Shown here one piece after another: positions 6,777 to 21,582 of a stretch of DNA of 25,685 bases. Each line of letters starts with the position of its first letter. Position 1 is the stretch's first letter. The notes under the pieces were generated by a model. That model was given only the letters and a program-made list of their open reading frames with translations, was not told where the DNA came from and did not search any database. Location: positions 1-25,685 of IMG/VR virus record IMGVR_UViG_3300020044_002886; one strand, given 5' to 3'. The DNA is from a virus (lineage: Duplodnaviria > Caudoviricetes). The position numbers and the translations under genes are program-made.

Positions 6777-8027
6777 TTAACGGTCTAGTAGACCTCTGCG
6801 GATAATTGTACCGCTTGAGTCCATTTGAATAAGGTTGTCAGGATATACGTCCAGGCCATACCCTGTATCACCAGTGTATTCAAACGGAAAATATTTCCTA
6901 CGCTCTTCAGGAGTCAAGTCCATTCGGCGCTGTGTAAGTCTTGCCTCGGCTTCACCCATCAGGTTTCCGTATGCTTGCATTGGGTCAATTTGAGCAGCAC
7001 CAACCAGCGATTGCCGTTGATTTATTAGGTCATCGTACTCATTACGCAGCACAGACTTTTCTTGAGCAGTTGTTGCAGGGTTATCAATTTGCTGAACAAG
7101 CGCACGCATTTTTTCATTTAAAGAAGTGATTTGCTGGTTTGCTTCATAGCGCATTTTTGCAAAATCACGGGCATTTCCACCGACTCCAAAACCTTCAATG
7201 TCTTGAATTGAGTGCTGCAATTCATGTAATGTTGTTGATCTTGGGTTGTTCAGTAGGCCTTGAGTAGTTACATCAAGTTGATTGCCGTACAAAGAACCGC
7301 GCATTCCGTCATCACCCGATTTGCGACCCTGATAAACAACTCTTTGAGCAAGCTCAGGGTAAGCCTCAAACAAAGCTGGATGCTCAAGCGCAACATTTGC
7401 GTAGTTCCCAGTCATCCGAGGATCGGCGCTATAGCCGTAAAAGTCACTTACAGACTCTTGCAGCGATTCCGTTTTACCTTTTAACTCTTTCTTTGCTTGC
7501 GTCAATTCTTTAGGAAAAAGGTCTTTTGCCTCTTTTCCTCGCTGCTTTACAGCATCTAGCATCTCTTTGTTTAAAGCAATTTCAGATTCAATTTGTTCTT
7601 TTTTTGCACGAATGTCAGTGGCTGAATTAAATTTAGAGCCTTGATCGCTAATCTCTTGTCGCCATTGACCATCTGGCCCTTTAACAGTTCCAGTTGTTTG
7701 CCAAATCTCTTGAGGGGTTGCGCCCTTCTTTGCCATTTGACTAGCTTTAAATGCCATGTCTTTATTAAACATCTTGGACGATGGCCCGATAAACATCCCA
7801 ACAGGGTTGTACGCCTCAGCCATCAGACTAGCCAAACGCTGCGTAGCTGGACCGTAGTCAATGCCTTCCTTTGCGGCAGCGGCTGTCATCTCATTCAGAT
7901 TACGCGCCCTGTCGTTAAGGTTTCCAACAAACTGCTGTGCGCTCAATAGCGGATTACCAAGCAAATCGGTCAACTTTCGTTTCGCTACGTTGCCAGCACT
8001 GAAAATTTCACCAAGTAATCCAGCCAT
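6777..8027 (-). CDS. LPD23 (large polyvalent protein-associated domain 23) protein with HExxH zincin-like motif
   Basis: IWQTTG...GPDGQWRQEISD, HPALFEAYPEL, TTLHELQHSIQDIEGFGVGG and Y..LMGEAEARLTQRR are motifs I recognise from LPD23/metallopeptidase polyvalent proteins. Confidence 0.78.
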   Translation of the reverse strand: MAGLLGEIFSAGNVAKRKLTDLLGNPLLSAQQFVGNLNDRARNLNEMTAAAAKEGIDYGPATQRLASLMAEAYNPVGMFIGPSSKMFNKDMAFKASQMAKKGATPQEIWQTTGTVKGPDGQWRQEISDQGSKFNSATDIRAKKEQIESEIALNKEMLDAVKQRGKEAKDLFPKELTQAKKELKGKTESLQESVSDFYGYSADPRMTGNYANVALEHPALFEAYPELAQRVVYQGRKSGDDGMRGSLYGNQLDVTTQGLLNNPRSTTLHELQHSIQDIEGFGVGGNARDFAKMRYEANQQITSLNEKMRALVQQIDNPATTAQEKSVLRNEYDDLINQRQSLVGAAQIDPMQAYGNLMGEAEARLTQRRMDLTPEERRKYFPFEYTGDTGYGLDVYPDNLIQMDSSGTIIRRGLLDR

Positions 8028-12927: not shown

Positions 12928-12939
12928 TAGTAAAAACCC

Positions 12940-13131
12940 TTAGTACGGCATTGGGTTAAGAGAAATCAAGCCCCACTTCATTTGAGGGTACTTGCGAACA
13001 ATGTCTGTCTTTTGCAGACGCTGGATGGTCGCCCATACTTGTTTTGTTGTCCAGCAAGTGATTTCTTCAATCTCTTTGCTAGACAGTTCACCGTGTTCAA
13101 GGAGGCGTTTGAGTGCGTAGGTACGGGTCAT
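12940..13131 (-). CDS. Small winged-HTH-like protein
   Basis: Start reassigned to ATG 13131 (ATGA overlap with the MTase stop): MTRTYALKRLLEHGELSSKEIEEITCWTTKQVWATIQRLQKTDIV. Confidence 0.65.
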   Translation of the reverse strand: MTRTYALKRLLEHGELSSKEIEEITCWTTKQVWATIQRLQKTDIVRKYPQMKWGLISLNPMPY

Positions 13132-13868
13132 GCTGTTAAAACTTTCCATGCTGTTGCTGCACAAAGTGGGACTTGTCCGTTACCAATGGCTTTAAGTCTG
13201 TCCACCCGACTGGATAACCCATCATTGCTTCCGAATGTTCTGGGATCGGATACGTCAGGCCAAATTTGATCTTGCACCAATGCCTCAATTGATCTGTTCT
13301 TGCTCGGCCTGTTTTGCTGTGGACTGTCGTTGTGCCACCCTTCCAATCGTCTGCCAATGGAGTTGGCAACAATCCAGATTCTTTCGCGTTTATGAGAGGC
13401 TCCGACAGCGTTTGCTCCCAGCACTCCCCATTTAGCATCAAACCCCATAAAGGCCAAATCTCCAAGAACAGTTCCAAGTCCCCTAGAAACGAGCATTGGT
13501 GAGTTCTCCACAAACACGAATCTTGGTCGTACTTCACAAATGATCCTTGCCATTTGCTTCCACATTCCTGATCTGGCCCCGTCAAGTCCATCGCCTTTTC
13601 CGGCTGCTGAGATGTCTTGGCATGGAAACCCACCCGAAACAACGTCAACAATTCCTCGCCACGGTTTTCCGTCAAAGGTTTGTACGTCATCCCAAATCGG
13701 GAAAGGCGGGAGAAGCCCGTCATTTTGCCTGGCGCACAGTACGCTAGCTGGATAGGGTTCCCATTCAACGGCGCAGACTGTGTTCCATCCGAGGAGCTTT
13801 CCTCCGAGAATCCCGCCACCTGCTCCGGCAAATAAAGCGAGTTCATTAAGGCTTTGCTGATTAGCCAT
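13128..13868 (-). CDS. dcm: C5 cytosine DNA methyltransferase, catalytic (alpha) polypeptide lacking motif IX
   Basis: Motif I LFAGAGG, IV GGFPCQDIS, VI FVENSP, VIII HKRERIWIVA, X RLKAIGNGQVP; no motif IX between VIII and X. Confidence 0.93.
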   Translation of the reverse strand: MANQQSLNELALFAGAGGGILGGKLLGWNTVCAVEWEPYPASVLCARQNDGLLPPFPIWDDVQTFDGKPWRGIVDVVSGGFPCQDISAAGKGDGLDGARSGMWKQMARIICEVRPRFVFVENSPMLVSRGLGTVLGDLAFMGFDAKWGVLGANAVGASHKRERIWIVANSIGRRLEGWHNDSPQQNRPSKNRSIEALVQDQIWPDVSDPRTFGSNDGLSSRVDRLKAIGNGQVPLCAATAWKVLTA

Positions 13869-13873
13869 GACAT
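13136..13873 (-). CDS. Alternative-frame methyltransferase beta polypeptide (carries a motif IX-like segment)
   Basis: 245-codon open frame overlapping the MTase almost end to end; its ATG overlaps the rep stop (TAATG); contains LPTPLADDWKG and PEHSEAMMGYPVGWT, lying just upstream of alpha-frame motif X. Confidence 0.72.
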   Translation of the reverse strand: MSWLISKALMNSLYLPEQVAGFSEESSSDGTQSAPLNGNPIQLAYCAPGKMTGFSRLSRFGMTYKPLTENRGEELLTLFRVGFHAKTSQQPEKAMDLTGPDQECGSKWQGSFVKYDQDSCLWRTHQCSFLGDLELFLEIWPLWGLMLNGECWEQTLSEPLINAKESGLLPTPLADDWKGGTTTVHSKTGRARTDQLRHWCKIKFGLTYPIPEHSEAMMGYPVGWTDLKPLVTDKSHFVQQQHGKF

Positions 13874-14694
13874 TATGCTTTCCTCAGAACTTGATTGATT
13901 TGCTGACGAATGTGGTCAGGCATAGGTGCGGCCTTTTGTCTGTCAGCCTCGATCTTCAGCAGCACAGGATCAGGGCCAGTATGTTGGGCAGGAACTGTTG
14001 TCCTGGCAACGTCAGCAGCTTGTTGGGCAAAGGATTGCTTTGGGGCCACCCACTCAGCTTTAAAACTTGCCCATGTACGCAAACAACACTCTTTGATTGC
14101 GTCCTCAAGAGTCCAGCCAGCTTTATTGACTTGATTTGAAAACAACTCCCAAGCGGTTTGAGTCAGTGGAGCATCCTTCTTCTTCCTGATTACAAGCCAA
14201 TCATTCCAAATTTGCTCATTAACAAAATCAGGCCGCGTTACTAACGAGTCATTTCCCTTCCTTTTCCCTTCCCTTCCCTTCCCTTCCACTTGAGTATGCA
14301 CAAGAGGCGTGACTGACGCGTCAACCACGCGTGACTCATGCGTGCAAGTTGTTGATTCTTCAGGGGAAGGCAGCAAAGATGTTGACTCTCTGTTGTTAAT
14401 TACCTGATGTTGTGACCAAGATGGAATACAGCCAAATTCATCGCCTTCAAAAGAATATTTGACAATAAATCCATGCGTGACTAACGCGTCAAGTACGCGT
14501 GAAAAATCAACTTGATCGTATGGAAGAACATCTAACTTCAATGCTCTAGGTTTCCATTTAAATCTACCTTCTCGATCACAAGCCGTAAACAATCCAATGT
14601 ATGCCAAACGCAAAGGCAATTTGTTTTGCTGCTCCGCTTCGAAAAGTGCTTCATGCCTAAACAACTCAGGCTTAACTGTTCTGATTCGTGCCAT
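13873..14694 (-). CDS. Replication initiator (lambda O-like / replisome organiser)
   Basis: MARIRTVKPELF N-terminus, D.EGRF.W.PR.LK, low-complexity linker EGKGREGKRKG, C-terminal W.DWL..RK.K.APLT.TA domain; internal DNA repeats. Confidence 0.8.
   Translation of the reverse strand: MARIRTVKPELFRHEALFEAEQQNKLPLRLAYIGLFTACDREGRFKWKPRALKLDVLPYDQVDFSRVLDALVTHGFIVKYSFEGDEFGCIPSWSQHQVINNRESTSLLPSPEESTTCTHESRVVDASVTPLVHTQVEGKGREGKRKGNDSLVTRPDFVNEQIWNDWLVIRKKKDAPLTQTAWELFSNQVNKAGWTLEDAIKECCLRTWASFKAEWVAPKQSFAQQAADVARTTVPAQHTGPDPVLLKIEADRQKAAPMPDHIRQQINQVLRKA
14235..14502. repeat. Iteron-like repeats and pyrimidine tract inside rep (candidate origin)
   Basis: GCGTGACTGACGCGTCAACCACGCGTGA (14307-14334) matches GCGTGACTAACGCGTCAAGTACGCGTGA (14475-14502) at 25/28 positions; GCGTTACTAACGAGTCA at 14235-14251; (TTCCC)n tract at about 14253-14287. 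Confidence 0.6.
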
Positions 14695-15061
14695 TGGCCT
14701 TCTCCAGAAACATATTGACCAAATCTTCTTTTGTCAAAACCGAAAGAATGTCACACAAACCATCAAGATCGTAACAATTCCAATAGCCAATTTTTGCCAA
14801 AGAAAGTATCACATTGGCCTTGCAGCCTTCGCTTTCCGCGTGTTGATCGGAATGACAATCAGCACATAAAGTTATGATTGTTTCAGAGTCGTAATCCCAC
14901 GGGCCTTCAGAATAAGGATGATAGTGAGAATGATGGGCGTGAAGCGTTTTTGTCGTGCTTCCGCAGCATCTACAAGCAAATCCGTCACGCTCATAGACGC
15001 GCAAACGCATCTGTTGCCAACGAGGGTCTAGCAATTTTTCGGAATAGCTTTTCTTAGCCAT
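14672..15061 (-). CDS. HNH endonuclease (HNHc)
   Basis: Start set to ATG 15061 (AGGTG RBS); DPRWQQMRL...RDGFACRCCG...LHAHH..Y...PWDY...TLCADCH...H. Confidence 0.85.
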   Translation of the reverse strand: MAKKSYSEKLLDPRWQQMRLRVYERDGFACRCCGSTTKTLHAHHSHYHPYSEGPWDYDSETIITLCADCHSDQHAESEGCKANVILSLAKIGYWNCYDLDGLCDILSVLTKEDLVNMFLEKANGTNQNS

Positions 15062-15095
15062 AAGCCGCACCTTTTAACAATGAGCCACCTTGAAA

Positions 15096-20807: not shown

Positions 20808-20988
20808 TTTGCTTCTCCAAGATTGGCGCGACAAGGTATTCAGGACAAGTCTGTGTGAACTGGCAACGAGGTTTCTGGCAGCGTTCAGCATGGAAGTTGT
20901 CAGGGTTCTGACAGAAATATCGGTAGTGCTCGTCTATACAACCACTCAACATGGCAACACTTATAAACGCCAAAAATGTTTTAAACAT
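20764..20988 (-). CDS. Small Cys-rich lipoprotein in the lysis module
   Basis: MFKTFLAFISVAMLSGC lipobox; mature part DEHYRYFCQNPDN....CQKP.C.....CPEYL. Confidence 0.75.
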   Translation of the reverse strand: MFKTFLAFISVAMLSGCIDEHYRYFCQNPDNFHAERCQKPRCQFTQTCPEYLVAPILEKQIEQTKPAAEPTPVR

Positions 20989-21493
20989 GTGGAGCCTTGT
21001 GGTGCGTAAAGTGTAGGTCTTCTGCCATCTTCCGAGCTTTTACAGCTTCTTCTGCTGTTGCAAAGTATCCCAAATGTTTCTGCTTGTAGTTATGCGTGAT
21101 GGTTGCAGACCAAGGCTTAGATTTCAATCTGGCTTCTTTTCTTACTCCTCGAAATCCAGATGTATTGTTTTTTGTGAGAAAAGTATTTTCACTGTTTTGC
21201 TTATGAGTTGCCAAACGTAAATTTACGGGTTTATTGTTGGCTTTATCACGATCAATATGGTCAATACCAAGTAGCGGAATTGCTCCATAGACATATAGCC
21301 ACATCAAACGATGTGCCAACTGGTCAGTTTGGTCAACACGAATCACAACATACCCAGCAGCATTTATTGAACCTGCTAGTTGACCTTTTTTTGCCTTACC
21401 ACCCATGGTGTTTTTCCACTTGAAAACGCCATCCTCGGTATCGACTTCAAGCAACTCACATAAACGGTCACGCGTTAAAATATCTTTAGTCAT
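20981..21493 (-). CDS. HNH homing endonuclease with C-terminal AP2-like DNA-binding domain
   Basis: LAHRLMWLYVYG..P...IDHIDRDKANNKPVNLRLAT..QN..N; NTSGFRGV...W.A.I......HLGYF.T.EEA..AR; start set to ATG 21493. Confidence 0.9.
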   Translation of the reverse strand: MTKDILTRDRLCELLEVDTEDGVFKWKNTMGGKAKKGQLAGSINAAGYVVIRVDQTDQLAHRLMWLYVYGAIPLLGIDHIDRDKANNKPVNLRLATHKQNSENTFLTKNNTSGFRGVRKEARLKSKPWSATITHNYKQKHLGYFATAEEAVKARKMAEDLHFTHHKAPHV

Positions 21494-21519
21494 TCCATGC
21501 TCCATTGCAATATGATTAG

Positions 21520-21582
21520 AAACACCGGTTGCGGACAACAATCGGTGTTTTGCATTGTAGCAAGAAATGTTATTCATGACAA
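21520..21582 (-). promoter_or_regulatory. Sigma70 promoter and leader hairpin of the HNH cassette
   Basis: TTGTCA (21577-21582)-17 nt-TACAAT (21554-21559); hairpin AAACACCG...CGGTGTTT (21520-21550). Confidence 0.7.

Follow-up and report, generated by a model that had tools for sequence, protein, structure and literature searches.

Several C5 DNA methyltransferases that are divided between chains or frames have been described, as far as the accessible portions of the papers go. M.EcoHK31I of Escherichia coli HK31, which recognizes YGGCCR, consists of two polypeptides, alpha and beta (PMC2836561; PMC3404938). Its activity requires both chains and is lowered by N-terminal deletions of beta from residue 37 (PMC2836561), and its recognition domain has been placed in alpha (PMC2836561; PMC3404938). 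M.AquI is a two-subunit enzyme whose small chain holds motif IX and a portion of the variable region (PMC3404938). In the Cluster O mycobacteriophage Corndog, overlapping methylase frames (genes 7 and 6) were noted and left unresolved, with a frameshift left open; the last 53 residues of gp6 were matched to the C-terminal helices of M.HaeIII, and the products of both genes were not detected by mass spectrometry (PMC4351075). Here, we analyse a phage DNA of 25,685 nucleotides (nt) (Caudoviricetes; IMG/VR record IMGVR_UViG_3300020044_002886, positions 1 to 25,685), hereafter the window, in which PHROG matches identify portal, terminase, endolysin and tail genes, and in which a predicted C5 methyltransferase is encoded by two almost completely overlapping frames, alpha and beta, directly downstream of a replication initiation protein gene (rep).

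The best explanation, to which we assign a probability of roughly 0.8, is that translation, coupled to rep, begins at two neighbouring ATGs and yields two chains, which assemble into a single methylase of the M.EcoHK31I family that protects replicating phage DNA; the assembly and the protection from restriction are suggested by knowledge of the family and by the position of the gene. Ribosomes ending rep would re-initiate at TAATG for beta and 5 nt later for alpha, and both chains would therefore come from one message. Alpha would supply the catalytic domain, and beta would supply motif IX and presumably the DNA-recognition region. The core of beta may wrap around alpha while a PTP cassette reads the target site, and the enzyme would methylate phage DNA during replication, which would then escape host restriction. 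The features at the centre of this reading are as follows.

13128..13868, minus strand: alpha open reading frame (ORF), 246 amino acids (aa); PF00145 E 1e-31, phrog_363 E 8e-61, M.HhaI E 2e-12 over residues 7-169
13136..13873, minus strand: beta ORF, 245 aa, +1 frame, predicted partner chain; phrog_1008 E 3.5e-17, 3619 homologous proteins
13873..14694, minus strand: rep, replication initiation protein gene, directly upstream of beta/alpha; phrog_16167 E 7e-42
13882..13885, minus strand: Shine-Dalgarno-like GAGG inside the rep end, read from the sequence, with a putative function in initiation

An earlier reading made from the letters of the window, here called the sequence-only reading, had described two same-strand ORFs with ATGs 5 nt apart and the beta ATG at the rep stop, and this layout was recovered in full. 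The ORFs overlap over 733 nt, with beta in the +1 frame relative to alpha; the two ATGs lie within TAATGTCATGG, beta first, and the last A of the rep TAA is the A of the beta ATG, a one-base overlap (TAATG). The GAGG precedes the beta ATG by 8 nt and the alpha ATG by 13 nt. The catalytic frame was said to have motifs I, IV, VI, VIII and X and to lack motif IX, and all five were located in alpha, as PF00145 membership calls for (PC in motif IV, EN in motif VI).

13812..13835, minus strand: alpha motif I, LFAGAGGG (motif reading)
13614..13631, minus strand: alpha motif IV, GFPCQD, predicted catalytic Cys83 (M.HhaI match, motif reading)
13500..13511, minus strand: alpha motif VI, VENS (M.HhaI match, motif reading)
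13374..13394, minus strand: alpha motif VIII, HKRERIW (M.HhaI match, motif reading)
13167..13196, minus strand: alpha motif X, LKAIGNGQVP (motif reading; profile-profile match to the monomer motif X only E 0.027)

Motif IX and the recognition region are not found in the alpha chain, whose linker is unconserved (column conservation 0.30), and the corresponding region is conserved in the +1 frame. The AlphaFold model of the catalytic part of a relative superposes on M.HaeIII and M.HhaI over about 172 columns. In a naturally frameshifted relative (L127), in which motifs I-VIII are fused to the cassette and motif IX, AlphaFold folds the catalytic part only, and the tail has a predicted local distance difference test (pLDDT) score of 24-45.

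The openness of the second frame is hard to attribute to chance. Among 20,000 random synonymous recodings of alpha, only 13 left the +1 frame stop-free over 240 codons (5.6 stops expected), and the +1 frames of all 14 other long window genes tested carry 6-29 stops. Of 80 viral loci retrieved with alpha as query, a selection that is independent of the state of beta, 79 were usable, and the beta frame was stop-free from motif I to motif X in 78 of these; of 27 GTDB loci retrieved in the same way, 17 were usable and all 17 were stop-free. The +2 frame, taken as a control, had medians of 14 and 12 stops, respectively. In the stop count, 61 of 303 loci were dropped as truncated, frameshifted or unmatched by the pattern, including the Bacteroides-type loci, one of which (L193) was read directly. 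The sequence-only reading had proposed that homologues be checked for two open frames, and had named frequent stops over the motif IX-like part of the second frame as evidence against itself; both frames proved open, and such stops are absent from these same 78 of 79 and 17 of 17 loci. Beta homologues of similar length number 3619 at 90% clustering, and relatives are known in phages of Vibrio, Klebsiella, Ralstonia, Mycobacterium, Bacteroides and Synechococcus.

Codon choice in alpha also follows beta at particular sites. Alpha-synonymous codons are fixed in opposite ways, each keeping the beta residues (Phe56 as TTC and Phe65 as TTT, each in 136 of 141 loci), and further alpha codons that keep beta residues are fixed at Asp60 (GAT, 135/136) and Asp85 (GAC, 125/140); Phe119 and Asp75 are near 50:50. 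Judged from their conservation, both overlapping frames are conserved protein-coding frames.

The second line of evidence is the homology of beta to its counterpart in the described enzyme. An EcoHK31I-type locus was located via the published EcoHK31IB primer (supplement of PMC2836561) and was present in 81 of 5426 E. coli genomes; EcoHK31I was not found in plasmid searches. One such locus (L383) comprises a 309-aa alpha adjoining a NotI-family endonuclease and a 176-aa +1 frame starting MQNSS at alpha codon 104. A hidden Markov model (HMM) of 132 full-overlap phage betas matched the L383 beta with 29.9 bits (E 2e-11), a score reached by 0 of 500 shuffles (best 8.2 bits), and the alignment spans WxxxGMxxxGExW and the canonical motif IX. 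The L383 alpha is 35% identical to the window alpha over 11-169 (E 9e-23). Residues 37-49 of the EcoHK31I beta are the shared W...GM...GExW motif. By homology and layout, the window pair thus belongs to the M.EcoHK31I family. The EcoHK31I-like two-chain arrangement proposed earlier is upheld as to family, by the beta profile, and departs from EcoHK31I in the predicted placement of recognition and in the extent of the overlap. The parts of beta are given below.

13700..13873, minus strand: clade-specific N-terminal extension of beta, ~residues 1-58, overprinted on alpha motifs I-III (stop counts; no PHROG match)
13370..13699, minus strand: family core of beta, ~residues 59-168, including WPLWGLMLNGECW at 13418-13456, common to Mycobacterium, Bacteroides, Synechococcus and Sulfitobacter phage betas
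13250..13369, minus strand: variable cassette region in the beta frame, with one LPTPLADDWKG cassette here; predicted target-recognition region (frame-specific conservation)
13199..13249, minus strand: motif IX in the beta frame, PIPEHSEAMMGYPVGWT, aligned to MLPSEYERLQGFPENWT of the EcoHK31I-type beta; in Corndog gp6 it stands directly before motif X in one chain

LPTPLADDWKG occupies residues 169-179 of beta and the motif IX segment residues 209-225. The suggestion that the other frame holds a motif IX-like segment was borne out by the alignment of the beta profile to the canonical motif IX (E 2e-11), and the WxxxGM...GExW segment of the beta core aligns to the EcoHK31I-type beta as well. 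phrog_1008, labelled DNA methyltransferase, matches beta from residue 71. Corndog gp6 is itself a member of the beta family (E 1.5e-25), and its single chain combines LPTP with motifs IX and X. Four further betas of 459-500 aa (P0125, P0131, P0144, P0149) continue past motif IX across an insert and have alpha's motif X at their end, as in Corndog.

Modelled alone, beta reached a mean pLDDT of 49 in AlphaFold, with only residues ~190-230 near or above 70 and no confident fold over residues 1-170. The absence of a confident fold in isolation fits a chain that folds on its partner, though it is not proof. A Foldseek search with the beta model returned nothing at E <= 0.001, and a search of the ESM Atlas returned unnamed viral clusters only.

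The third line of evidence concerns the region between motifs VIII and IX. In 32 pairs of equal length, differences at alpha codon positions 1, 2 and 3 were 0.38, 0.12 and 0.12. Alpha position 1 is the wobble position of beta, and identity in the same pairs was 0.81 for beta versus 0.58 for alpha. Compared with three close relatives (L001, L082 and L083), the window differs at 0, 2 and 2 of 42 beta residues versus 8, 14 and 11 of 43 alpha residues. On these patterns, the region evolves as beta-coding sequence, and recognition has probably moved to beta; LPTPLADDWKG, noted earlier as lying where a recognition region should be, agrees with this frame-specific conservation. The number of [LW]PTP cassettes per locus varies (n=117: none in 15, one in 71, two in 26 and three in 5), identical cassettes recur in differing combinations across loci, and contigs of related phages have the sequence replaced over ~13207-13413.

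Several results weigh against the two-chain methylase. Beta has no match in Pfam, NCBIfam or PDB sequences, and its tail, compared with a profile of 25 monomeric methyltransferases, gave an hhalign E of 0.19 with the best alignment on motif IX, the HMM result being non-significant too. The relatives compared are related and are not independent samples. Conservation at four-fold sites exceeded that of flanking genes modestly at 80-90% protein identity (0.63 vs 0.54) and hardly at 90-97% (0.72 vs 0.71), and was at control level in the middle third of the gene. The synonymous constraint that the sequence-only reading proposed to check is seen at specific codons, with a modest overall excess that almost vanishes among the closest pairs. 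Beta substitutions in the first 40 codons are not more conservative than expected (BLOSUM -1.35 vs -1.33). The similarity of beta to the EcoHK31I-type beta is partly expected from the homology of alpha, given the same frame relation, and the PTP cassettes are proposed as DNA readers from their position.

The missing matches of beta to methyltransferase Pfam or PDB entries would be expected if alpha alone were a methylase of relaxed specificity, with beta accessory or unrelated. Phage m5C methylases of relaxed specificity do exist, and those described in the accessible text of two papers have ~700 aa (PMC3925955; PMC5537653). However, the alpha linker (conservation 0.30) changes freely while beta does not, beta is homologous to the chain of M.EcoHK31I that is described as required in the portions available, and the beta chain itself carries motif X in Corndog and in 4 of 4 longer homologues read. 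We regard a self-sufficient alpha as highly improbable.

The order of motifs on the DNA is exactly that of a monomeric enzyme (I-VIII, recognition, IX, X), as it would be if one polypeptide were made through two programmed frameshifts, +1 after motif VIII and back before motif X; a frameshift was, as said above, left open for Corndog 6/7. Such a product would leave unexplained why the beta frame is open and constrained upstream of motif VIII, why the beta ATG is conserved and why an N-terminal motif of beta is kept. Moreover, a PF00145 annotation is absent from all 32 longer beta homologues, the accessible literature describes the homologous M.EcoHK31I as a pair of polypeptides, and the window copy has no G run of at least 7, no systematic scan for other slippery sites having been made. 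The frameshifted monomer is, in our estimate, the least probable of the explanations considered.

The N-terminal part of beta appears to be younger than the rest. Phages of Mycobacterium, Bacteroides, Synechococcus, Sulfitobacter, Microbacterium and Stenotrophomonas contain distant relatives that encode the same +1 protein, ending in a motif IX-like segment; in these, however, beta-frame stops occur over motifs I-II, and the first ATG mostly lies +38 to +61 codons after motif I. Over the first 40-45 codons after motif I, the clade of the window (93 distinct loci) has 0 stops vs 56.9 expected, whereas the late-start, S-H1-like clade (55 loci), which serves as an internal control, has 56 vs 54.8 expected. 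In the latter clade, 58 of 66 loci have a recognisable motif IX, and in 57 of these no stop interrupts the frame between codon 46 and that motif; the first in-frame Met falls at codon 39-45. Because of this control and the distant relatives, the first ~58 residues are best read as a clade-specific extension and residues ~59-168 as the family core. Thus, the overprinted domain of ~170 residues without assigned function proposed earlier would shrink to some 58 unmatched, clade-specific residues; the remainder would be family core, matched by phrog_1008 from residue 71.

On the alpha tree (quick search, midpoint root, 87 selected rows), full-overlap loci form one clade (67 rows, one without the canonical ATG; support 97 in the Shimodaira-Hasegawa-like approximate likelihood ratio test, SH-aLRT) among late-start relatives; five S-H1-like rows were labelled ‘ext’ solely for the absence of an early stop. 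In this one clade, the start of beta would have moved upstream as far as the beginning of the gene, from ~alpha codon 104 (EcoHK31I type) or ~codon 50-70 (distant phages).

The start region itself offers a further view of beta. The usual start in relatives is ATGAATGAG, with alpha MNELALF and, four bases later, beta MSWLF, and the upstream frame ends right at or over the beta ATG in most such loci (39 and 17 distinct canonical starts). Relative to this, the window start has nine extra codons, which resolve into two copies of a 27-nt block.

13847..13873, minus strand: start duplication copy 1, beta MSWLISKAL, holding both ATGs (13873 beta, 13868 alpha) (sequence comparison)
13820..13846, minus strand: start duplication copy 2, alpha NELALFAGA (motif I lead-in), with the beta frame drifted to MNSLYLPEQ (sequence comparison)

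Among 20 distinct duplicated starts, copy 1 keeps 12.3 of 27 nt of the canonical block, 7.0 of 9 beta residues (MSWLISKAL vs canonical MSWLFSQAL) and 0.3 of 8 alpha residues, whereas copy 2 keeps 19.9 of 27 nt, with 7.8 of 8 residues retained in alpha and 3.5 of 9 in beta. The two serines of beta are now encoded by the other codon family (AGY to TCA and TCN to AGC, each in 19 of 20), and two loci with other insert lengths (L056, L152) keep M-x-W-L-x-S-K-A at the start of beta. One locus (L038), whose first copy still has ATGAATGAGTTGG, is an apparent intermediate. These patterns are most simply read as a tandem duplication, following which the motif of one frame was retained in each copy; the 20 duplicated starts may stem from one event. 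As read from these sequences, the duplication is direct evidence of selection on the N-terminus of beta, with MSWLxSxAL kept at the protein level. Duplicated starts are scattered among canonical ones on the alpha tree, which suggests recombination.

These data also bear on whether the working beta starts internally, at Met51 or Met62, in which case its first 50-60 residues would serve mostly as an open leader coupling its translation to that of the gene upstream, not as a structural part. Of 141 loci, 137 keep Met62 and 124 keep Met51, the late first ATG of the distant relatives falls in the same range (+38 to +61 codons), the first 40 beta codons lack the conservative bias discussed above, and AlphaFold gives pLDDT 35-44 over the N-terminal stretch. 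On the other hand, a Shine-Dalgarno core precedes Met62 in 0 of 136 loci vs 118 of 140 for the first ATG (in the usual layout, shared with alpha), and MSWLxSxAL was retained at the protein level after duplication. In the window's clade, third-position identity is as high over codons 0-40 as over codons 46-100; in the late-start clade, this first stretch has clearly lower identity. An internal start is therefore judged unlikely, and two chains starting at the neighbouring ATGs remain the preferred reading.

Building on the two-chain methylase, a more detailed picture can be drawn, to which we give somewhat less than even odds. Beta would be a swappable specificity subunit: by exchanging or stacking PTP cassettes, phages would alter or multiply the sites that they methylate, the cassettes being expressed in the beta frame and the same DNA giving alpha a looped-out, neutral linker. 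Its first ~58 residues would be a young overprinted arm with a needed MSWLxSxAL tip, and the 27-nt duplication would represent the overlap resolving, each copy keeping one motif.

The methylase pair has rep, an HNH protein, a small HTH-like (helix-turn-helix) ORF, RusA and NinB as neighbours. By the Pfam and PHROG labels of these neighbours, no cognate restriction endonuclease is annotated beside it, and the arrangement is not that of a type II restriction-modification system. A scan for promoters and terminators gave chance level. Two HNH endonuclease genes lie in the window, at 14672-15070 (directly upstream of rep) and 20981-21577, and L127 has another directly upstream of its methyltransferase; out-of-frame HNH inserts are described in the accessible part of PMC11855218. 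A purine repeat in mid-rep (14262-14290), made of GGGAA units on the coding strand and encoding GKGREGKRKG, could lie near a replication origin. The head-gene ORFs at 1495-2904 and 6777-8027 are long and have weak PHROG matches or none. In a 33-kb contig of a related phage (run X5 contig 17), the rep stop is joined to the downstream gene by 107 other bases, and the contig is without the methylase pair and the next small ORF (window 12932-13875). Since the cassette is missing between the rep stop and the downstream gene in this contig, the methylase module is probably accessory.

Frameshifted methyltransferase genes occur in six relatives (L127, L132, L145, L146, L175, L186), each with a run of 8-12 G, and G runs of at least 7 also occur in 19 of 117 intact loci, the window copy having none; the frameshifted loci could reflect phase variation or assembly error.

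Records of the family give one frame, often part of one, in 14 of 14 annotated phage and plasmid entries. Among four GenBank records (L189-L192), the beta frame is annotated (by coordinates) in those of Vibrio and SOVA965, the latter as a DNA-cytosine methyltransferase, and a shortened alpha in those of Klebsiella and Ralstonia. A RefSeq E. coli record (L383:1731-2660) has alpha alone, the 176-aa beta frame being unannotated. phrog_363 (alpha) and phrog_1008 (beta) are both labelled DNA methyltransferase and are not linked as one dual-coded gene. Weak beta-like tblastn matches lie under annotated methyltransferases in an archaeal plasmid (Methanomethylovorans, L200) and in several cyanobacterial (among them Nostoc, L199) and Bacillus plasmids, which suggests that the family reaches beyond phages.

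No literature description of the full-length phage form was found; subscription papers and the 1995 EcoHK31I paper lay mostly outside the coverage, and a prior description is possible. The layout is not described in the accessible text of PMC3925955, PMC5537653, PMC11954522 or PMC12707154. Papers on Paracoccus and Sinorhizobium prophages were considered as prior descriptions and rejected, the enzymes there having ~700 aa in the portions available (PMC3925955; PMC5537653).

Full-length dual coding of two chains of one enzyme on the same strand is rare, and here it would characterize a large family. Because records annotate one frame, a codon-optimised clone of the annotated protein is expected to be inactive, and predictions of specificity made from the annotated frame would look in the wrong frame. 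The graded series of loci (EcoHK31I type, late start, full overlap, duplicated start and Corndog type) may make the birth, growth and resolution of an overlapping gene testable.

Among the described systems, M.AquI, compared by description, differs in that its small chain also has motif X and in that the accessible text does not describe its chains as nested frames (PMC3404938). The Corndog alpha ends after motif VIII, and motifs IX and X are found in the second frame, the overlap being partial, whereas the window alpha keeps motif X. The methyltransferases of the Bacillus phages SPR and phi3T are monomeric and multispecific, with tandem recognition domains. Their tandem exchangeable modules between motifs VIII and IX resemble those of the window family by description, a likeness that serves as a lead only, and they are monomeric, unlike the predicted two-chain family. 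The closest likeness is to M.EcoHK31I, in which alpha has motifs I-VIII plus motif X, and beta, with motif IX, lies in the +1 frame inside alpha. The EcoHK31I-type beta starts at alpha codon 104 and has 176 codons, whereas the window beta starts 5 nt before alpha and spans the whole gene. The EcoHK31I-type L383 adjoins a NotI-family endonuclease, whereas the window gene sits in a phage replication module with none annotated beside it. The recognition or variable region belongs to alpha in EcoHK31I-type loci and is conserved in beta in the phage family: alpha 216-255 hardly varies among seven EcoHK31I-type loci, and the changes between the three that are equal in length fall on alpha third positions, in line with the published recognition domain in the EcoHK31I alpha. 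The window pair thus differs from EcoHK31I in its full-length overlap, in the frame that carries the variable region and in its duplicated start.

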